From a virus, in IMG/VR virus record IMGVR_UViG_3300038393_001022: a DNA stretch of 44,703 bases. The stretch is one strand, 5' to 3'. Positions 3,127 to 33,668 of this stretch are shown here, in pieces. A program made the translations under genes and the position numbers. Under the pieces are notes generated by a model. It did no database searches. It saw only the letters and a list, made by a program, of their open reading frames with translations, and was not told the DNA's origin. How positions within the stretch are numbered: position 1 is the first letter of the stretch; each line of letters begins with the position of its first letter.

Positions 3127-3671
3127 TGGGCAACTATCAGCCGGGCAAGATGCCCGAAGGGAAGTTCATCGATCCGAAGTGGCTGAACCGGGAACTTCTC
3201 AAGGTGCAGACCGGGCTCAACTTCCTCGACGAGCGCAACTTCCCGAACAAGCTTGCCGCCTCCGACGTCATCGGTGATGGCACGGTCAAGTTAAACCACA
3301 CGAGCGGCTCGGGCGAGTTTCGGATTCCGATTCTCGCCCTTGCTACAGCCGCCTCAATCACGGCTACCACGCTGACGTCTCTAGGAGGCTTTGCCAACTT
3401 CGACCCCGCCCGTTGGGCGGGTGTCCCTATGTCTAACATCTACCTCGAACTGACCGCAGGCCCCGGCCTTGCATCTAGCCCCCTTACCGTAGAAATCTGG
3501 GGTACGGCAGGGGCTCTTGCCAGCACCACCCTTTCTACGGTAGGATTGACATATAGCGCAGTTCCGTTTACTAGTCTGCCTGCCTCTTCGCAGGCTCTCA
3601 CCCTGAAGGCGAAGGTGGGCTCTACCACAGCGGGGAGCATCATTACCGCCAGCATCCTCATTCGACCCTAG
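3126..3671 (+). CDS. Virion-associated protein, 181 aa (small internal-virion-protein position)
   Basis: Track ORF 2865..3671 trimmed to the ATG that overlaps the upstream stop (TAATG). The codon pattern is GC3-rich. No motif recognised. Confidence 0.55.
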   Translation: MGNYQPGKMPEGKFIDPKWLNRELLKVQTGLNFLDERNFPNKLAASDVIGDGTVKLNHTSGSGEFRIPILALATAASITATTLTSLGGFANFDPARWAGVPMSNIYLELTAGPGLASSPLTVEIWGTAGALASTTLSTVGLTYSAVPFTSLPASSQALTLKAKVGSTTAGSIITASILIRP

Positions 3672-3684
3672 GGAGGGATCGCAG

Positions 3685-9280: not shown

Positions 9281-9550
9281 GTGGCAGACTTCCCTTCCCT
9301 AGGGGAACTTACCCTAGGGGGTATCTCAATCGTGTGCATCGCGGCTGTGGCTGTGGCGCTGGTAAAGCGCGAGAAGCCGAAGGAGGGTGGCAACCCCTCC
9401 CTCAGCCTCGACCAAGCAATCGAGGTCATTAAGGCCAACACCGAGATTAACACCCGCCTCGTGTCGGCGATCGAACAGCAGACCCGGATCATCAACGACC
9501 TCGCCTATGCGGTCCATAAGCTGGTAGGCCATATCGAGGGAGGCAAGTAA
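9281..9550 (+). CDS. Small membrane protein, 89 aa (lysis-cassette member, holin/antiholin-like)
   Basis: GTG start 8 nt after GGAGGTG. One N-terminal hydrophobic helix (LGGISIVCIAAVAVALV). It is immediately upstream of the holin-like gene and the endolysin. Confidence 0.55.
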   Translation: MADFPSLGELTLGGISIVCIAAVAVALVKREKPKEGGNPSLSLDQAIEVIKANTEINTRLVSAIEQQTRIINDLAYAVHKLVGHIEGGK

Positions 9551-10956: not shown

Positions 10957-10985
10957 AACCCCCTAGGGAACTTCCCTAGGGGGTT
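10957..10985. terminator. Bidirectional intrinsic terminator at the convergence of the two genome arms
   Basis: AACCCCCTAGGGAA-c-TTCCCTAGGGGGTT is a near-perfect 14+14 palindrome built from two CCCTAGGG copies. An A-run lies upstream and TTTCGTGTTT downstream. Confidence 0.75.
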
Positions 10986-14985: not shown

Positions 14986-15698
14986 CTCTTCTCCTTCGCG
15001 GCGGTAATCAGGTTACTGGCTTCACCCTTAGTGAGGTCCTCCATGTTGTGGAACTCCCGGCCTACCACAGCCTCGTATTCCTCCCATGTAGCAGAGCACA
15101 TAGGGTCTTCCACTAGAGCCCTTTTAAGTAAGCCCACCTGCTTCTCCGTGGCAGGGTCGTCGTACCACCTCGGCCTAGGTGTGCCATCGGCTAGGGCTCT
15201 CGTTGGTCTAGTGATCTCGTCAAAGCTGAGCATTTCGGCCTCTAAGCCCTTGAGAGGCCTGTTGACCGTGCGGTTGTTGCGGTTGTCGGTGAAGTCGATC
15301 GTAAGGCTCAGGCCGGGCTTGAGGTAGAAGCGAACGATCTGATTGCCCCTTACGGGGTCGGGGGATACCTCCACCTTGTAGACCCTAGCCCGCTCCTCTT
15401 CGGAGAGACATGTACGGGCGATCGCCTCCGCTGTCTTGCCTTCCCTCACCATAGCCCTGTGGCTAACGCTCAACTCCTTAACTTCGTCGTCCTCTAGCCA
15501 AGGTACATCAGCCCTAGGGGGATTCTTTAATCCCTCCACGGTTCTCGTAAGCCAAGACTCCGTAGGGACACTGTTTAGATAGACCGCCCCTAGATTTTTT
15601 AGGTCTACAGGCTTTACTACCGTAGCATCCTCTACCTGCTTCGCCATCTCGTCAGGCACCTCGACGAACAGCTTATCAAGGCCGTTGTCGTCCGGCAC
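14973..15698 (-). CDS. Hypothetical protein, 241 aa
   Basis: GTG start after AGGGGGTGA. The C-terminal ATEKQVGLLKRAL...LTKGEASNLI resembles a short helical motif common in phage replication-module proteins. Confidence 0.55.
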   Translation of the reverse strand: MPDDNGLDKLFVEVPDEMAKQVEDATVVKPVDLKNLGAVYLNSVPTESWLTRTVEGLKNPPRADVPWLEDDEVKELSVSHRAMVREGKTAEAIARTCLSEEERARVYKVEVSPDPVRGNQIVRFYLKPGLSLTIDFTDNRNNRTVNRPLKGLEAEMLSFDEITRPTRALADGTPRPRWYDDPATEKQVGLLKRALVEDPMCSATWEEYEAVVGREFHNMEDLTKGEASNLITAAKEKRWMR

Positions 15699-15744
15699 GT
15701 TGTCACCCCCTGCCGATCAGCTTGTCCGAACCGACAAACACAGT

Positions 15745-16071
15745 CTACTCGGGATCGGTGGCGCTGTCAAGCCACTCCTTGAAATTCCAATCCGGGTCGT
15801 TGTAGTGGGCCTGCCACGCCGACATGAAGCCCCTGACCGGGACCGGGCACTCGTAACAGTCACCTGTCACAACGTCGGAGATATAGGCGGTGTGGATCGT
15901 CAACAGCCCCGCGTCTTCCCTGTCGGTGAGGTACTTCAGGGCGCCGTGGGCGGTCCAGTGGGAGATACCGTTGCTGGTCACGACGATGCCATAGTACCGG
16001 ATGGCCTCCGGGCGGCGGCGCAGGTAATCCGATCGGGTCTTCTTCCGGGTGGCCTTAGTCTCTTCGCTCAC
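15745..16071 (-). CDS. Hypothetical protein, 108 aa
   Basis: AAGGAGGA precedes a GTG start that lies inside CCCTAGTG. Confidence 0.55.
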   Translation of the reverse strand: MSEETKATRKKTRSDYLRRRPEAIRYYGIVVTSNGISHWTAHGALKYLTDREDAGLLTIHTAYISDVVTGDCYECPVPVRGFMSAWQAHYNDPDWNFKEWLDSATDPE

Positions 16072-25254: not shown

Positions 25255-27306
25255 CTACGCCTCCGTAAAGAAGTCACTGAAGCCCCAGCCGCTCTGAATC
25301 CGGGTCTTCACGATGTCGCCGACAAGCTTCTGCTCTAACTCCTCGTCGGTACGCCCCACAAAGGAGGTCAGACAGGCCTCCTGCGGCGGAATGCCCTGCC
25401 ATATGAGTTCGACCGCTTGGAGTACGGCACGAACGGAGACCGAACGGGTCGAAATCTCCGACGCGCCTCCTGCGGCGCCCGACTTCTTGAGCAGGTCTTG
25501 GAAGATGCCTGCTAGGAGGTTGGCCTTGTCAGCCTTGAGGCCGTAGCGGTAGAACTTCGTCTTGAGCAGGTTGGCGAAGTCGTTCTGCCCCATTGGCGGT
25601 ACATAGACGGGCACAAAACCGTCAGCGGTCGCCTCGTTTAGTTCACTAGTGCCAGCGTAGCCGGGGTTGAACGTCAGAATCATGCGGAACGCCGGGTGGG
25701 CCGTGACGACACCGTAGCCGGGAATCTCCAACCGACGCCGATCGTCACGTAGGGAGTGGGTGATGATAAGGGCCTCAGGCCGGACGGAGTTCGCCTCGTC
25801 GATCACGCAGAACTTCCCATCACGGGCCGCCGCCGCTACGGTGCCGTAGAGGTACGACACCTCGTCACGCTTCCCTAGAGCGGCGAGGACACCGCCGATC
25901 GCCTGCTCGGTCATGCCCTCGGCCTTGAGTTGCTCGTAGACCTCGACCATATCCTTCGTGTCCCGAACGTGGCTCTTGAAGACCTCGTGACCGATGATCG
26001 AATCACCGTCAAGGTGGGCATGGCCCTGAATCTCAGCCAGCGGCCTTGCCAGCAGAAAGGCACAGGTCTCAGCGAGGGTGTTCTTGCCGGAGCCCTTCGG
26101 GCCCTTGAGGATCAAGTGCTGGCCCCCTAGGAGCGCGGCAAGGGACAGCTTGAGTTCCTTGGAGCCGAAGAAGAACGCCCGAAGCTTCGGATGATCCGGG
26201 TCGTTGCTCGGCATCCCTAGGTTGGTGCGGAACTCATTGATCTGCTTGATCTGCCGAGGGGTAACACCCTGCGACTTCACGTAGTCGAGGACGGACATCT
26301 TGCTCATGGGGTCAGCTTCCTCCTTAGGGGCGGGTGTGGTTGACGCTGAGGCTCGGTTAATGAGTGTAACCACATGATCCTCACTGGGCGTCCAGTGCCC
26401 TACCGTAACGTGTTTTCCGTCTTTGTCGTAGGCCACGCTGACATCAGCCTTCTTAGCGCCCAAAACATGATGGACGTCGGTTACGGTGTAAACGTTCTTG
26501 GCATCCTCTGAGATGCGTAGGTTCTGAAACACATCACCTACGCGGAGGTCGTAGCAGTAAACCTCCCTAGGGAGAATCTCCCCGTGGACCGGACCTTCTG
26601 CACCCTTAGGCAGGTGCTTCTCCGTCGTCCCGGTCCCGGTCGTGACCTCTTCCGTACCGGGTACGGTCAGCGGCTTCAGCGGAGCCGGAGTGGGCTTCTT
26701 AGGGCCGGAGAACGTCACACTAGGCTCCCGCATAGCCCGGTCGAAGTCCGTATCGGGTCCGTGGTCGATCGCAGGGGCCGTCATCGCCGGAGTGCCGTCG
26801 TCGTAGGTGGCGACGACCTCCTCAGGGGCAAAAAGATCGACATGCCGATCAGCATCAGCGCCCCAATCGTAGGTATTACCGACGATACCCGCGTTGCTGT
26901 GACCCCGCTTGACAAGCTTGACCACAAACTCGCAGTCACCCTTATCAGTAACGACCTCGTAGAAGTGACCCGTCGTAGGCCAGCGGAAGATGTCGCCGAC
27001 CTTCAACAGCTTAACCGGACCTCCTCCAGCGGGGGTGTAACCCTCAAGGCTGGACTCCTCAACCTTGTGCTTAGGCGGCTCTGCTGTGGTCGTGGCCGCA
27101 TCGTACGTGCCCTCTACTATGAGGACCTCGGTCCCTAGGGGCTTAGGGTACTCCCGGCCTGAGGAGCCCTCGACGCGAAGGATGGCGACCTTCTCACCGG
27201 ACTCCTCGTCCAACTCAATCCGGATGAAGGTGTACTTCTTCCCACCCTCCTTCAGTTGGACGACGGAGCCGATGGAGACACGGTACAGTTCACGACGACG
27301 GATCAT
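25255..27306 (-). CDS. AAA+ ATPase of the MoxR/CobS (AAA_5) type with a ~360-aa N-terminal extension, 683 aa
   Basis: Walker A LKGPKGSGKNT (about 26076-26110). Walker B FCVIDEANSV. The N-terminal part holds three small beta-rich segments (IGSVVQLKEGGKKY, KVGDIFRWPTTGHFYEV, RVGDVFQNLRI). Confidence 0.7.
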   Translation of the reverse strand: MIRRRELYRVSIGSVVQLKEGGKKYTFIRIELDEESGEKVAILRVEGSSGREYPKPLGTEVLIVEGTYDAATTTAEPPKHKVEESSLEGYTPAGGGPVKLLKVGDIFRWPTTGHFYEVVTDKGDCEFVVKLVKRGHSNAGIVGNTYDWGADADRHVDLFAPEEVVATYDDGTPAMTAPAIDHGPDTDFDRAMREPSVTFSGPKKPTPAPLKPLTVPGTEEVTTGTGTTEKHLPKGAEGPVHGEILPREVYCYDLRVGDVFQNLRISEDAKNVYTVTDVHHVLGAKKADVSVAYDKDGKHVTVGHWTPSEDHVVTLINRASASTTPAPKEEADPMSKMSVLDYVKSQGVTPRQIKQINEFRTNLGMPSNDPDHPKLRAFFFGSKELKLSLAALLGGQHLILKGPKGSGKNTLAETCAFLLARPLAEIQGHAHLDGDSIIGHEVFKSHVRDTKDMVEVYEQLKAEGMTEQAIGGVLAALGKRDEVSYLYGTVAAAARDGKFCVIDEANSVRPEALIITHSLRDDRRRLEIPGYGVVTAHPAFRMILTFNPGYAGTSELNEATADGFVPVYVPPMGQNDFANLLKTKFYRYGLKADKANLLAGIFQDLLKKSGAAGGASEISTRSVSVRAVLQAVELIWQGIPPQEACLTSFVGRTDEELEQKLVGDIVKTRIQSGWGFSDFFTEA

Positions 27307-27518: not shown

Positions 27519-27866
27519 TTACTCGTTGATGCCGAAGGCGGTCTTGATCGTAGAGACGAGGCCAAGCCCCTTCTCGGTCATTGCAACGTTGACCACACGA
27601 CGGTCCTCGGCATCCTCGCTACGGGTGATGTAGCCGTCCCGGACGAGCCGATCGAGGATGCCCGTCATGTTGCCACGAGAGCACCCAAGGGCGTCGGCGA
27701 TGTGGCTGATCTTGGTGTAGGCGCCGCCATTCTCGGCGATCACCAAGAAGGCAAGAGCCTGCGGATAGGTCATCTGGACGCCGTGGTCGTTGACGAGGGT
27801 CTGCTCAAACTTGAACTTACGGGCGGCCTCTTCGATGTCATGCCGGATGATGTCCTTCAGGTTCAC
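27519..27866 (-). CDS. MarR-family winged-helix transcriptional regulator (~115 aa; track ORF trimmed)
   Basis: ISHIADALGCSRGNMTGILDRLVRDGYITRSEDAEDRRVV is a typical MarR wHTH. GGGAGGA lies 7 nt before the GTG at 27866. The longer form would overlap the upstream gene by 56 nt. Confidence 0.7.
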   Translation of the reverse strand: MNLKDIIRHDIEEAARKFKFEQTLVNDHGVQMTYPQALAFLVIAENGGAYTKISHIADALGCSRGNMTGILDRLVRDGYITRSEDAEDRRVVNVAMTEKGLGLVSTIKTAFGINE

Positions 27867-27924
27867 GGCGGTATCCTCCCTAGGGGCGTTATTTAGGGTG
27901 CCGGAACCGGGGCCGGAGCCTATG

Positions 27925-28242
27925 TTAAAGTCCTGCAAGCCGCTCGGCGAGGGGCGCCCACAGAACCTTGATCGAAACACCTTGGGGGCCGTGGTTGGTA
28001 TGCACCGCCAACCCGGCGACGTTGAGAAGCTTTAGGGCGAAGTGGGCGTTGCAGGTGTGGCGCCCGTGGTTGATCTCCTTCAGGGCCAGTTCGTAGGACC
28101 GGGCTCCGGGGTTCTTCAGCATGAAGTTCCCTAGGTTCTTCATCGAGAGCCGCTCGCCCTTGTTCATCGTCTCGACGAGACGATCGAAAGCTTCCCTGTG
28201 GATCTGGTCGTAGGTGACGGGGTTATGAATGGGGTGAATCAT
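27925..28242 (-). CDS. Hypothetical early protein, 105 aa
   Basis: GGGAGGAA lies 5 nt before the ATG. Confidence 0.55.
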   Translation of the reverse strand: MIHPIHNPVTYDQIHREAFDRLVETMNKGERLSMKNLGNFMLKNPGARSYELALKEINHGRHTCNAHFALKLLNVAGLAVHTNHGPQGVSIKVLWAPLAERLAGL

Positions 28243-29157: not shown

Positions 29158-29742
29158 CTAGTGGGAAGACTTCGGAGCCGACGAGACGTCAACAGGGTTG
29201 TCCAAGCAGGAGCGCACCTCGTTAATAAACCCTTGGAACCGCTGGGCCGACGTCGGATGATTCTTAGCGAAGGCAGGCAGGACGTGCTCCGCCATCAGGA
29301 ACACCGCCCGTAGGTAGTTCACCCCGGCGTCGTCAAGCAACAGATGGTAGACGCGACCCGGCTCCACCGTAACTTGATTGGTAACGGCTTCAGGGATGGG
29401 CGACTCGAAGGTGTCTACCTTCACAGCAGGCCGAACGGGGACGTTCAGCTTCCCTTGGTCAGCCATAACGGTCTTGAAGGCTTCAATGGCGTTGTGGTCC
29501 CACTGAGTCAACTCCCTGTCGTAGAACGACGCCGGGAGCCACTTACCGTCCTCGACAGAGCCGAGGTACGTACCCTTACGGTGCAGGCCGTACTCGCCGT
29601 CGATGTACTCCACAACGTAGTCGCCGTCCTTGGCGACACCGTGCTTAGGGGTGCCATGCTGATCGGATGCGTCGAGGGCCTTGGTCGTGTGGGCACTTTC
29701 GTAGACACGCTTCACTAGGGTCTCGAGTGTCTTAAGGCTCAC
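29158..29742 (-). CDS. Hypothetical early protein (~194 aa; track ORF trimmed)
   Basis: A strong SD GGAGGAG lies 5 nt before the GTG at 29742. The ATG at 29793 has no usable spacer. Confidence 0.55.
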   Translation of the reverse strand: MSLKTLETLVKRVYESAHTTKALDASDQHGTPKHGVAKDGDYVVEYIDGEYGLHRKGTYLGSVEDGKWLPASFYDRELTQWDHNAIEAFKTVMADQGKLNVPVRPAVKVDTFESPIPEAVTNQVTVEPGRVYHLLLDDAGVNYLRAVFLMAEHVLPAFAKNHPTSAQRFQGFINEVRSCLDNPVDVSSAPKSSH

Positions 29743-30455
29743 GGTTACTCCTCCTAGGGATCTTAGTTGAGTCCGGAACTGCGGGCGGGTCATCCCCTTT
29801 GCCCGTGGCGTGTGGGTTGTTTAGGGCACAACCCACCGAGAAAGCCCTAGCTTCGGTGTGGTGTTTACCAGACATGGCACACCAAGCACGGCGGTTCGTT
29901 AGTGTGGTTCTGCGGGACTAAGAAGACATAGGTATCCTAGGGCGCCTGTGCTTTCCGTCTACTCTGCGCCCTCTCTGCTATTAACTCCTCGATGCTGACC
30001 ACATGGTCTCACTGGTGTACCTACTCGCCGACGGCCTTTCAACCGCCAGCTACACTCCGAAGAGTGCGCTTGTCCCTTACCCACCTGACGCTTCGTAGTT
30101 TCCGGTGTGTCCCCCGTTACCGAAGGTGTCCTCCGTACTCGGCCTCCCGGCCCGTCATGCCTCTAGGGCTGTCTCGTTCCCCAGCGTTCTCACATCGGTT
30201 CGTCTTAGATTGTGGCACCACACGGTTGCCAGCCGACCGCTTGTCGTTGTCATCGGTGCCGATCAGCTTGTCAACATCTTACCTTGCCGTTATGCCGCCG
30301 TCAAGATGGTTAGACCAAAAAATTTTAAAACCCGCAAACTGGCTTCACAGGCCGATTTGCGGGCTTTTTGTAAATTCCTGTCAGCAACTTCTTTGACCTT
30401 CCCTGATCTTCGCCTAGGAAGGGGTTACGGGCGCATCCACAGTACGCACGTATCC
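29743..30455 (-). other. ORF-free island (~0.7 kb): candidate structured ncRNA or long leader
   Basis: There is no ORF of 60 aa or more on the transcribed (minus) strand. The plus-strand ORFs have junk composition. Hairpins lie at 29812-29836 and 29852-29886, and a terminator lies at the upstream edge. Confidence 0.4.
30317..30370. terminator. Bidirectional intrinsic terminator downstream of CDS 30456..31202
   Basis: A-run, then CCCGCAAActGGCttcacagGCCgaTTTGCGGG, then CTTTTTG. Confidence 0.7.
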
Positions 30456-31202
30456 CTAGGGCTCCTCCTCCGCTGTGCCCCAAGGCTTTCCGTCCCAGTA
30501 GTAGGCCGCGTAGCGTACTGCATACGTATCCACGAGAGTTGCATAATCCTTATCGTCTGCGTACTTCCAGACGTCAACCTTCAGGGGGAACGGCACATCC
30601 GTGCGCTCGACTAAGGTCTTCAGCGCCTTCGAGAGGTCTGAGACCACGAAGTAAACCTCTACATCACCCGGCAAATAAGGCACTCCTCGGGCCGCCGCTG
30701 AGCGTGCGGGCTCCGTAGCCGTGGCCCCGAACACTAGGGTAAACCCTGCCCACTCCTTCGCCTCAGCCCTGAAGTGCTCTGCGAGGCCGGGCCGGAAGTA
30801 CCACGGGCGCATCGACGGCAACTTCGAAGACCACACAGAGAACCCGTACGGCTTCGGCGGCGCCACCCAGTTCGTGAAGTGCTCCGCGCCGAGGGCGCCC
30901 GACGTCGGGTACTTCCAGTGGGCGTCAAAGTACCCTTTGAGTTTCACCTCGTCTTTCCCTAGGGACTCCGACGTAACGCCTGCGGGCCCGGACGCCACAG
31001 AGCCAGCCTCCACACCGCCTAAGGGCTCAGCGCCACCTTCGACGACCACAGTCATCTCCAAAGGCTCGGCTGTGGGCTTCGACGTCACCTCTGCGAGGGC
31101 CATTTGGACTAACTCACCGTCGCTCAGGTGCTCACCATAACGTTTCCGAAGGGTTTCTAAGTACGTAGTCTGGACGCGAACGGCCTTACTCGGTACGGTC
31201 AT
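30456..31202 (-). CDS. Hypothetical early protein, 248 aa (first gene of a short leftward unit)
   Basis: GGGAGG lies 7 nt before the ATG. A promoter-like element lies upstream and a terminator downstream. Confidence 0.6.
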   Translation of the reverse strand: MTVPSKAVRVQTTYLETLRKRYGEHLSDGELVQMALAEVTSKPTAEPLEMTVVVEGGAEPLGGVEAGSVASGPAGVTSESLGKDEVKLKGYFDAHWKYPTSGALGAEHFTNWVAPPKPYGFSVWSSKLPSMRPWYFRPGLAEHFRAEAKEWAGFTLVFGATATEPARSAAARGVPYLPGDVEVYFVVSDLSKALKTLVERTDVPFPLKVDVWKYADDKDYATLVDTYAVRYAAYYWDGKPWGTAEEEP

Positions 31203-31231
31203 TATGTCGCCTCCCGGCTCAACGTGACGTC

Positions 31232-31261
31232 AGCATAGCATGGCGCTGATAATCACGTCAA
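31232..31261 (-). promoter_or_regulatory. Sigma70-like leftward promoter candidate
   Basis: On the minus strand: TTGACG (31261-31256), 18-nt spacer, TATGCT (31237-31232). It lies about 30 nt upstream of the ATG at 31202 and overlaps TGACGT(CA) motifs. Confidence 0.4.
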
Positions 31262-31273
31262 CACCCGCCAAAT

Positions 31274-31307
31274 GACGTCAAAAAACCCGCAAACGACGTT
31301 GTACAGC
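31274..31307. repeat. 34-bp repeat family A, copy 1 (GACGTCAAAAAACCCGCAAACGACGTTGTACAGC)
   Basis: 33/34 identical to 31420..31453. Confidence 0.85.
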
Positions 31308-31419
31308 CTGTTACAGAGATTCAGGGCACAGGGCAGGGCAAATTTGTAACAGATCCCTTTAGACTTGAAGGATTGTGTTACAAAGGCAGGGCACGGGACA
31401 GGGACAAATTGTAACAGGC

Positions 31420-31453
31420 GACGTCAAAAAACCCGCAAATGACGTTGTACAGC
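31420..31453. repeat. 34-bp repeat family A, copy 2; its CCCGCAAA forms the left arm of a terminator hairpin
   Basis: GACGTCAAAAAACCCGCAAATGACGTTGTACAGC. Confidence 0.85.
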
Positions 31454-31464
31454 GGGTTTGCGGG
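31426..31464 (-). terminator. Intrinsic terminator-like hairpin (minus strand)
   Basis: CCCGCAAA (31432-39) pairs with TTTGCGGG (31457-64). On the minus strand the hairpin is followed by TTTTTT. Confidence 0.5.
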
Positions 31465-31557
31465 ACAGGGCACGAGACAGGGCAAATTTGTAACAGATAG
31501 TTTTGGCACCGTCAAGCTTGTCGGTCGCACCCTCCTTTGGCTGTTACAACACAGGGC

Positions 31558-31590
31558 AAAAACCCCCTCTCTATACGTAGTATAGAGGGG
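31558..31590 (-). terminator. Intrinsic terminator-like hairpin (minus strand)
   Basis: CCTCTCTATAC-gta-GTATAGAGGGG. On the minus strand it is followed by TTTTTG. Confidence 0.5.
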
Positions 31591-31612
31591 TGTTGTCCCT
31601 GTGCTGTAACAC

Positions 31613-32040
31613 GGGGTGTTTGAGGGGGAGGGGCAGAGGGGCGACGTCAGAGGGGGTGGGTGACGTACGTCGGGTTGACGAGAATGACGTCGATTGTCGT
31701 TACGTTGACGTACATGGGGTGGAGTGGGGTGGGGTGAGGTGAGTGGTGGGGGTCCGGGACTAACCAACGTGGGGGGTTGGCGACGTCGGGGGTTTGGCCT
31801 TAGTGGTCTGGGACTGACCATGATGGGGTGGTAGGAGGTGGGGTGGGGTAGCCTAGGGCGCCCTGGGCGAGGGTGCTGCTCTCCTAGAAAATGTAAAAAA
31901 GCCCTCAGGCAGGGTGCCGAAGGGCTTTTCTGGGGTTTGGTAGGGGAGGGCGAAGGATAGGGACGGGCAGGAAGGGGCTCTAGAGGTCTCAGGAGGGCCG
32001 TTTGGGGGGAGGGCGCTAGGGTGGGTGCGGGTAGGGTGGA
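31613..32040 (+). other. G-run tract: multiple G-quadruplex-forming motifs confined to the plus strand
   Basis: Examples: GGGG-N7-GGGGG-N1-GGGG-N4-GGGG at 31613-31641; 31716-31752; 31810-31848; 31932-31977; 32004-32036. Confidence 0.7.
31895..31930. terminator. Bidirectional terminator-like hairpin
   Basis: AAAAAAGCCCTcaGGCagggtGCCgaAGGGCTTTTC. Confidence 0.55.
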
Positions 32041-32085
32041 AAAAGGCCTCAGAATGGCTCTGGAGCGTTCGGCCCTCAGGAGGGC

Positions 32086-32118
32086 AAAGCAAAACCCCCA
32101 GCCGGGTGACTGGGGGTT
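32086..32118 (-). terminator. Intrinsic terminator of CDS 32130..32948
   Basis: AACCCCCAG-ccgggtga-CTGGGGGTT. On the minus strand it is followed by TTTTGCTTTGC. Confidence 0.7.
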
Positions 32119-32129
32119 GCTTGTGGGGC

Positions 32130-32948: not shown

Positions 32949-33668
32949 TTAGACCAGTCTCCTTCTTCGCCCTGCCACACCTTCGGCCCACCCCCCTGTG
33001 GGGACTGGTATCTCCGTCGGTGCGGCCTCTGGGATCATTCAGTTTTCAAGGTACATGCCATCCATCCGGCCCCTATGTGGGTTCGGCGCCCTGCCGCTAT
33101 TGGCGTTTGTCGGCGTCGCTAGGTTTGTCGGGGCCGTCACCACCGTACTACGTAGGGCAAAAACCTGTCAACCCCCCTATTCGAAACTGGAATGAATTTC
33201 GGCGAAAAAGTTGCAAAGTCGCCGATTATCCATTCCGGCTAGGCATAGGTGACGGGAACGTATGTTCGAGCAGCGTTGAACAAGTGTTCGCCCACCATGC
33301 GGCCTACGCATACATAGGCCTGCCCTAGGGTAACGCTCTGGGACTACCCACCCTAGGGCATGTCCTTCCAAACCTGTACTGTTCATGCTACCTAAGCACC
33401 CTAGGGCCGTAGTTTACATAACGTGGAAAATATGGGGTTGTATGGTATACCCTAGAGAGGGTCCTTAGAATCCCTAGGGCCGCCCTTGGGCCCCGCTCCT
33501 ACGTCGCGGGGTAGACATGTGTGCTCACGAGGACAAATTCTGCGGTCTAGACAAACCAAGCAACACTATGTACACTAAAAAGGGGACCCAAAAAACGCAC
33601 CCACCCCTGCCTTACCTCCTGAATACCTCCCTGCATAAGTATTCATTTTGCGAAAGGTGTGAACAGCG

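Follow-up and report, generated by a model that had tools for sequence, protein, structure and literature searches.

We lean towards reading the 0.7-kb island at 29743-30455, in the leftward early operon of an uncultured phage, as transcription punctuation made up of a terminator, a promoter, and an unusually long untranslated leader. A terminator-promoter junction is a known kind of feature, and the island is best filed as such, here in a new and isolated phage. For this genome the island clearly stands out in its lack of open reading frames (ORFs) and in its base composition, but not in how much RNA structure is predicted for it. Two properties count against our preferred reading, since a plain leader leaves them unexplained: about 0.5 kb of non-coding DNA has been kept in a tightly packed genome, and the purine skew of the transcribed strand is extreme.

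The window—the whole stretch of 44,703 nucleotides that was analysed—is nearly the entire contig (~45 kb, 59-60% G+C) of an uncultured tailed phage. Its plus-strand genes encode the small and large terminase subunits, the portal, and the major head and tail proteins. A long minus-strand block encodes a family-A DNA polymerase, a helicase, a primase-helicase, a PD-(D/E)XK nuclease, and an AAA_24 ATPase, together with a MoxR-like AAA_5/VWA pair, a MarR-type regulator, and many small orphan genes. Recombination proteins are also encoded by the phage; there is no integrase or lysogeny module among the window genes, and ARAGORN found 0 tRNA or tmRNA genes across the whole window. The nearest cultured relatives share at most 35% identity in the primase and the major capsid protein. 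Relatives of the large terminase subunit (TerL) in IMG/VR and metagenomes share at most 40%, except for one 2-kb contig at 70%. Judged by its genes, this is a lytic-type tailed phage of an isolated lineage; the lineage is new, and the phage, with its very dense CCCTAGGG palindrome, is itself more notable than the 0.7-kb island.

The island lies in the leftward early block between two orphan genes. On its upstream side the 248-aa gene (30456-31202, minus strand) ends in a TAG stop at 30458-30456, which sits in a CCCTAGGG palindrome at 30454-30461. On the downstream side is a gene of 194 aa (29158-29742, minus strand), whose translation most likely begins at GTG 29742→29740 rather than at the ATG at 29793 chosen by the metagenome pipeline (211 aa, 29158-29793). 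The GTG follows the ribosome-binding site AGGAGGAG (29755→29748, minus strand) at a spacing of 5 nt, and the ATG follows a purine run without a spacer; for comparison, the 248-aa gene is preceded by GGGAGG, 7 nt, and ATG. With GTG 29742 as the start and AGGAGGAG 5 nt upstream of it, the left coordinate of 29743 given in the original prediction is exact.

Several lines of evidence concern the coding capacity of the island. The minus strand has no ORF of 60 aa or more between the stop of the 248-aa gene and the next gene, just as had been claimed, and the two plus-strand ORFs named as the only ones present (29992-30396 and 30105-30614) are indeed the only ones; neither shows the GC3>GC2 pattern of a gene. 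In the real genes of this phage GC3 is ~0.76 and GC2 ~0.42, and the island is flat. No small ORF with a Shine-Dalgarno sequence occurs in the island, and the sole candidate for a small ORF with a ribosome-binding site spans the terminator and was set aside as spurious. A recoded gene was also considered; however, TAA, TAG, and TGA are mixed in all six frames, so stop-codon reassignment cannot rescue a gene and recoding is excluded. At E ≤ 1, six-frame translations of the island matched 0 Pfam or PHROG families. When the proteins of the window itself were compared with the island by tblastn, nothing below E 0.006 came up except the ends of the flanking genes. The island has no credible coding frame on either strand. 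As for the flanking orphan proteins, their predicted structures have mean pLDDT values of 37 and 49, too low for fold searches. The contrast with a genome in which genes otherwise abut had been overstated, as two more large gene-free islands lie near, at 31203-32129 (927 nt) and 32949-33516 (568 nt).

From the sequence and the ORF list, the 248-aa gene has an 85-nt 3′ untranslated tail (30371-30455, minus strand), which leads into a bidirectional intrinsic terminator at 30317-30370. This terminator had been proposed as the upstream edge of the island and is borne out by folding: the stem formed by AAAACCCGCAAACTGGC and GCCGATTTGCGGGCTTT, flanked by an A/T tract at one end and a T tract at the other, has minus-strand values of -25.0 kcal/mol and z -3.8; the plus-strand values are -21.2 kcal/mol and z -3.5. 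Read on the minus strand (30370→30317), an interrupted 13-bp stem is followed by UUUUAAAAUUUUUU, which is the arrangement of a Rho-independent terminator. On the plus-strand face (30327-30370) the hairpin is followed by CUUUUUG. The same CCCGCAAA..TTTGCGGG hairpin type is also present at 31279-31312 and 31425-31464.

About 12 nt past the terminator begins a candidate sigma-70-like promoter (30304→30276, minus strand), located by consensus scan and composed of TTGACG (30304→30299), a 17-nt spacer, and TAAGAT (30281→30276). It has 9 of 12 consensus matches, is sense-oriented, and is by its sequence of the sigma-70 type; transcription would start near 30269. Terminator and promoter together align with a like pair in front of the 248-aa gene (31312→31232). 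Five window sites (15770, 18631, 30304, 31261, and 39306) fit TTGACR-N16-18-TANRMT against 0.19 expected, a pattern composed only after the sites had been seen; all five are on the sense strand and just upstream of genes. A generic consensus promoter scan is not enriched over shuffles (6 vs 4.2 and 4 vs 4.0). The other four promoters of the set lie at most ~45 nt from a start codon (three measured, 24-44 nt), whereas the promoter at 30304 is ~530 nt away from one. Given these distances, the length of the leader is the one real anomaly of the island.

Directly after the -10 box is a block of the form GACAAGCTGATCGGCA-N4-TGACAACG (30245-30272, minus strand), in which N4 is CCGA. It recurs at 15698-15726 as GACAAGCTGATCGGCA-GGGGG-TGACAACG, just downstream of the promoter at 15770→15742. 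The GACAAGCTGATCGGCA part lies at 30257-30272 in one copy and at 15711-15726 in the other. This common block (28/29 nt) has 86% identity over 29 nt and contains an exact 16-mer, with an E value of 0.006 within the window. The block includes the near-palindrome GCTGATCGGC, centred around GATC, and AAGCTGATCGGCA with at most two mismatches is found at 7 sites vs 0.9 expected. The match takes in the 5′-UTR and the start of the 241-aa gene at 15698; in the island copy the Shine-Dalgarno sequence and start codon are replaced. The common block looks like an operator or a shared 5′-UTR element.

Taken in order along the minus strand, these features suggest how the island would work. Transcription of the 248-aa gene would stop at the hairpin terminator (30370→30317), and host RNA polymerase would restart ~50 nt further on, at the sigma-70-like promoter (30304→30276). 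The operator-like block overlaps the presumed start site and is probably bound by a phage regulator, for which the MarR-type protein from the same operon (27519-27980) is a candidate. The new transcript would carry a purine-rich untranslated leader of ~527 nt (29743-30268, minus strand; bounded by the presumed start site and the start codon of the next gene) with a few stable hairpins, whose most likely role is a cis effect on the stability or processing of the mRNA. Between the promoter and the ribosome-binding site at 29755→29748 the minus strand has no terminator, and polymerase would presumably read through to that site and to GTG 29742. Some of the leader may be nothing more than relic sequence. 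The original prediction had offered two readings of the island, a regulatory leader and a long structured non-coding RNA (ncRNA). The former is supported, with a promoter-like site after the terminator and no internal terminator; the latter finds no support.

Terminator-promoter intercistronic regions with long leaders are familiar from phage early operons, including those of lambda pL/pR (with their nut sites), T4, and T5. The island resembles the early regions of lambda, T4, and T5 in having a host-type promoter directly behind a Rho-independent terminator, an operator-like repeat in the promoter region, and then a hairpin-bearing untranslated leader ahead of the next early gene. It differs from them in the length of the leader (~527 nt vs at most ~45 nt at the phage's other promoters), and also in that the island shows no recognisable antitermination motif (boxA/boxB-like or other known type) and matches no Rfam leader.

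The plus strand had been described as pyrimidine-skewed, and positions 29951-30250 are in fact the most minus-strand-purine-rich 300 nt of the window (0.64); as minus-strand RNA the leader is 32% G, 26% A, 26% C, and 16% U. The G+C content of the island ranges from 0.49 to 0.61, and stays close to the genome mean outside the terminator. A CsrB-like sponge with GGA motifs was considered and rejected, as GGA and AGGA are as frequent as the composition predicts. No tandem or direct repeat family occurs within 29743-30455, and the island thus lacks the repeats of a ToxI-like type III toxin-antitoxin RNA or a CRISPR-like array. It likewise has no iterons, and so does not show the iterons plus A+T-rich unwinding element of a replication origin. 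An attP site was rejected for a phage without an integrase; the missing integrase and the absence of iterons in the island make both the attP and the ori readings unlikely.

Within the leader, the perfect 9-bp hairpin GTGGGTTGT/ACAACCCAC with a 7-nt loop (29812-29836, minus strand) lies ~70 nt upstream of the start codon and is present as described, with -16.2 kcal/mol and z -3.15. No U tract follows it, so it is not a terminator, and it may be an mRNA stabiliser, a processing site, or a binding site. A further hairpin, GGTGTG...CACACC (29855-29883), had also been called clean; it exists, but it is weak (z -1.3). Twin tetraloop hairpins are predicted at 30027-30067 on the minus strand—GCACUC-UUCG-GAGUGU (30067→30052) and GCUGGCGGUU-GAAA-GGCCGUCGGC (30050→30027)—with -25.6 kcal/mol and z -2.98. 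The GAAA hairpin contains four G.U pairs and is therefore strand-specific. CTTCGG has a total of 63 copies in the window, and just two of the hairpins around it have a 6-bp stem, the UUCG hairpin among them. Since 2.6% of background 66-nt windows reach z ≤ -3, the twin-hairpin signal is suggestive only. A long-range helix with 13 of 14 positions paired (29837-29850 with 30163-30176) could close a domain of ~340 nt; an equally good helix is found in 6.8% of windows of 571 nt, to which the self-complementarity of CCCTAGGG contributes.

Neither family models nor folding energies set the island apart as a large structured RNA. Searching the whole window against Rfam 15 with cmscan gave 0 matches at the gathering score. 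When the search that had been suggested was applied to 29500-30700 at E ≤ 10, it returned only OrzO-P (E 3.3) and isrJ (E 1.8), which are chance-level matches and both on the terminator. The models for GOLLD, ROOL, and other large Rfam ncRNAs (HEARO, raiA, etc.) were not matched. Comparison with dinucleotide shuffles, also suggested, gave z -1.81 for the minus strand and -0.13 for the plus strand over 571 nt, no excess over the genome background. Eleven ordinary coding windows of the same length have a sense-strand z of -1.85 +/- 1.12, which makes the minus strand of the island exactly average for the genome. Sliding 150-nt windows within the island range from z -2.4 to +0.6, like the coding flanks, and the island does not exceed both the composition-matched and the genome background as a structured ncRNA would. 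With average folding and hairpins at background level, thermodynamics lends no support to a GOLLD- or ROOL-like RNA.

GOLLD (RF01998) and ROOL (RF03087) are large ncRNAs often carried on phages and prophages. The island is like them in being phage-borne, ORF-free, and several hundred nucleotides long; it is unlike them in that their covariance models find no match even at E ≤ 10 and in that it has no excess of structure. GOLLD often adjoins tRNAs, and here ARAGORN found no tRNA genes near the island. The CI RNA of P4 and the C4 RNA of P1/P7 are cut from the leader of an operon transcript, and the leader here would be a comparable 5′ part with stable hairpins and a possible source of a processed RNA. 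P4 and P1/P7 are temperate, however, and their CI and C4 RNAs act in immunity, whereas the present phage has no integrase or lysogeny module. No complementary target of the leader was found elsewhere in the window. In T4, CUUCGG tetraloop hairpins were reportedly described in intercistronic regions by Tuerk et al. in 1988. The C(UUCG)G hairpin of the island is similar in being intercistronic, with a 6-bp stem, and it adjoins a GNRA (GAAA) hairpin. In contrast to T4, there is just one such hairpin in the island, and CTTCGG is common in the genome (63 copies).

Searches for relatives returned little beyond the phage itself. The 248-aa and 211-aa flanking proteins gave only self-matches in IMG/VR and among 5.8 billion proteins, as did the 211-aa protein among 1.84 billion cluster representatives, and the AAA_5 neighbour matches only itself. 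At the DNA level, blastn against GenBank phage and PLSDB plasmid collections gave no match, 160 TerL-anchored loci contained no similar DNA, and no exact 22-mer was shared with metagenome or viral contigs (0 hits). With 20-mers, the GTDB genome contigs produced five hits; their flanks are unrelated, and they are thus chance matches. Viral contigs with paired CCCTAGGG sites were also inspected, none of them related to the phage. The locus is present in five nearly identical JGI contigs, with just two SNPs inside the island. One of these, G→A at 30067, converts a predicted G.U pair to A-U; it is compatible with the hairpin, and it is one event.

Readings other than punctuation with a long leader have to be weighed against the same evidence. 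One is that the stretch between promoter and gene is a decayed former gene, a pseudogene or deletion scar, leaving terminator, promoter, and ribosome-binding site as the sole functional parts. We regard this as unlikely, though worth taking seriously: it would explain the distance from promoter to gene, given that the paralogous promoters lie within ~45 nt of start codons, and the block after the promoter resembles the 5′-UTR and start of the 241-aa gene with the Shine-Dalgarno sequence and start codon replaced. Coding sequence is also typically purine-rich on the sense strand, and codon usage resembles that of genes over 53 open codons (30278→30120), where the log-likelihood ratio is 0.3-0.49 and the gene mean 0.51. 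However, the single coding-like 100-nt stretch that the codon-usage scan gave is within the wrong-frame background: real genes read in a wrong frame equal this codon score in 2-8% of windows, and the signal is therefore not significant; the remaining ~400 nt score as non-coding, and no frame has any similarity to Pfam, PHROGs (E ≤ 1), or the proteins of the window. Useless DNA is usually purged from phage genomes, and the island is invariant among the population contigs but for the two SNPs. That the leader or a processed product of it is instead a functional minus-strand ncRNA of a new family, either a cis riboregulator or a trans-acting RNA, seems to us rather doubtful. The 0.5 kb of non-coding DNA kept in a compact genome speaks for it, as do the strand-specific twin UUCG/GAAA hairpins with their G.U pairs (z -2.98), the difference between strands over the whole region (z -1.8 minus vs -0.1 plus), the lone SNP in a predicted leader helix that turns G.U into A-U, and the 13/14 helix (29837-29850/30163-30176) that could close a ~340-nt domain. 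Against these stand the Rfam families without a match and the value of -1.8, which is the ordinary coding mean (-1.85 +/- 1.12), with unremarkable 150-nt windows; background windows match the twin hairpins in 2.6% of cases (66 nt, z ≤ -3) and the helix in 6.8% (571 nt). Homologue searches were empty, and hence conservation and covariation lend the idea no support; nor does any statistic positively favour it. In its fullest form—the leader 30268→29743, with its twin hairpins and possible 340-nt domain, as a new phage ncRNA confined to an orphan lineage and serving as an early-operon riboregulator or a 5′-processed trans RNA—we consider it improbable.

The remaining alternatives concern the DNA itself and the opposite strand. 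The island could be a DNA-level element such as a transcription-primed origin, where a purine-rich transcript forms an R-loop as at the ColE1, T7, and T4 origins. Its support comes from the gene content (a family-A DNA polymerase, a primase-helicase, and recombination proteins, but no integrase), from a promoter whose predicted transcript is the most purine-skewed in the window, and from an A/T-rich 20-mer at 30315-30334. Yet we hold this to be very unlikely: the island is without iterons or direct repeats, G makes up just 32% of the transcript with few G clusters, the G+C content stays near the genome mean except at the terminator, and clusters of TGTTACA and TGACGT motifs plus a G-rich tract make the neighbouring island at 31203-32129 a far better candidate for an origin or operator. 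Least credible of all is a plus-strand antisense RNA that crosses the island and stops at the plus face of the terminator (30327-30370), for which we see hardly any chance. A good hairpin and T tract are indeed present on the plus strand too, and the same hairpin type occurs in opposite orientation in the neighbouring island; however, no plus-strand promoter-like site is found in or before the island, the RNA would be pyrimidine-rich with z ~0, and the upstream A tract is equally well explained as the partner of the U tract in a strong minus-strand terminator.

If terminator, promoter, and long leader are the correct reading, the island is an ordinary regulatory junction, useful chiefly for annotating the phage. 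The annotation would gain an operon boundary, one promoter in a set of five, a candidate operator, and a corrected gene start. The length of the leader and its purine skew leave a small chance that a new RNA element is present.

Two other features of the window, the CCCTAGGG palindrome and the repeats at 31203-32129, are more striking than the 0.7-kb island. No other 8-mer comes near CCCTAGGG in frequency in the window, where it has 73 copies (1633 per Mb); shuffles give ~9 matches for its 7-mer, both strands counted. Within genes it is mainly found in the CTA-GGG phase (47 copies), with 11 copies in the Pro-Arg phase and 15 in intergenic regions or gene ends. Its density is within the range reported for the highly iterated palindromes of cyanobacteria (PMC4390886), and the text of that survey does not contain CCCTAGGG. 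All seven TGTTACA/TGTAACA copies of the window fall in the island at 31203-32129, which also has six TGACGT motifs, repeats of 33 nt and 39 nt, a G-rich tract, and several terminator hairpins; it makes a better operator-cluster or origin candidate than 29743-30455.

Directly 3' of two of the sigma-70-like promoters in the window lies a block of the form GACAAGCTGATCGGCA-N4/5-TGACAACG, present in two minus-strand copies at 15698-15726 and 30245-30272. The copy at 15.7 kb continues into the ribosome-binding site and GTG start codon of a 241-aa gene; in the copy within the ORF-free island (29743-30455), the ribosome-binding site and GTG are replaced. The block could possibly be an operator, or the remnant of a duplicated promoter/5'-UTR module. 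At the other end of the island, the metagenome gene call begins the downstream gene at ATG 29793, giving a protein of 211 aa. A start at GTG 29742, which has AGGAGGAG ahead of it across a 5-nt spacer, would yield 194 aa; the metagenome call probably starts too early, and GTG 29742 is the candidate true start.

The gene upstream of the island (30456-31202) encodes a 248-aa protein, for which a single-sequence AlphaFold model reaches moderate confidence (pLDDT 70-82) only at residues 10-40 and is unreliable elsewhere. In these residues the model places a short strand ahead of two helices, an arrangement reminiscent of a ribbon-helix-helix DNA-binding domain.

Upstream of this gene, 927 nt (31203-32129) form a second island devoid of ORFs. 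All seven copies of TGTTACA/TGTAACA in the window fall within it, at 31309-31611, as do 6 of the 16 TGACGT motifs. It also carries three 33-nt repeats (31322, 31387, and 31466), two 39-nt repeats containing terminator-type hairpins (31274 and 31420), and additional terminator-like hairpins at 32118->32093 and 31923->31902. The plus strand here is strongly G-rich, with a GC skew of up to +0.56 and TGGGG runs at 31715-31751, and the pyrimidine content of the minus strand is the highest in the window. Rfam returned no match in this second island, which resembles a cluster of operators, a replication origin, or both.

The commonest 8-mer in the window is the palindrome CCCTAGGG, with 73 copies spread over its whole length (for example at 25-32, 3666-3673, 9297-9319, 10961-10981, 30454-30461, and 33323-33479), or approximately one per 612 bp. 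The 7-mer CCTAGGG has 180 strand-counted matches, versus 8.6 +/- 3.1 in shuffles. Within genes, 47 of the 73 octamers are read in the phase xCC-CTA-GGG and 11 as C-CCT-AGG-G; the other 15 are intergenic or supply a TAG stop. The density, 1633 per Mb, is in the range of the highly iterated palindromes of cyanobacteria (1000-2000 per Mb; PMC4390886), and the survey's text does not contain the octamer. Of 120 viral contigs carrying paired CCCTAGGG sites, no contig above about 2 kb in length is as dense as the phage window, and none is kin of the phage.

Four of these palindromes are packed into 157 nt (33323-33479), right before the first rightward gene and the small terminase. The surrounding region, 32949-33516, is gene-free and divergent, separating the leftward early block from the packaging and structural block that runs rightward. 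Rfam gave no match here beyond one chance-level hit (E 0.57), and the region may hold divergent promoters, a packaging site, or both.

The phage belongs to an orphan lineage. Among billions of proteins searched, both genes flanking the first island (29158-29742 and 30456-31202) and the 683-aa AAA_5 protein (25255-27306) have no homologue beyond their own clusters. The closest relative of TerL is 70% identical and is carried by a 2-kb contig, and the major capsid protein is ~33% identical to its counterparts in Myxococcus phages Mx9 and Mx8. Variants in the population are mosaic: to the left of 27438, contig L002 shows an abrupt divergence.
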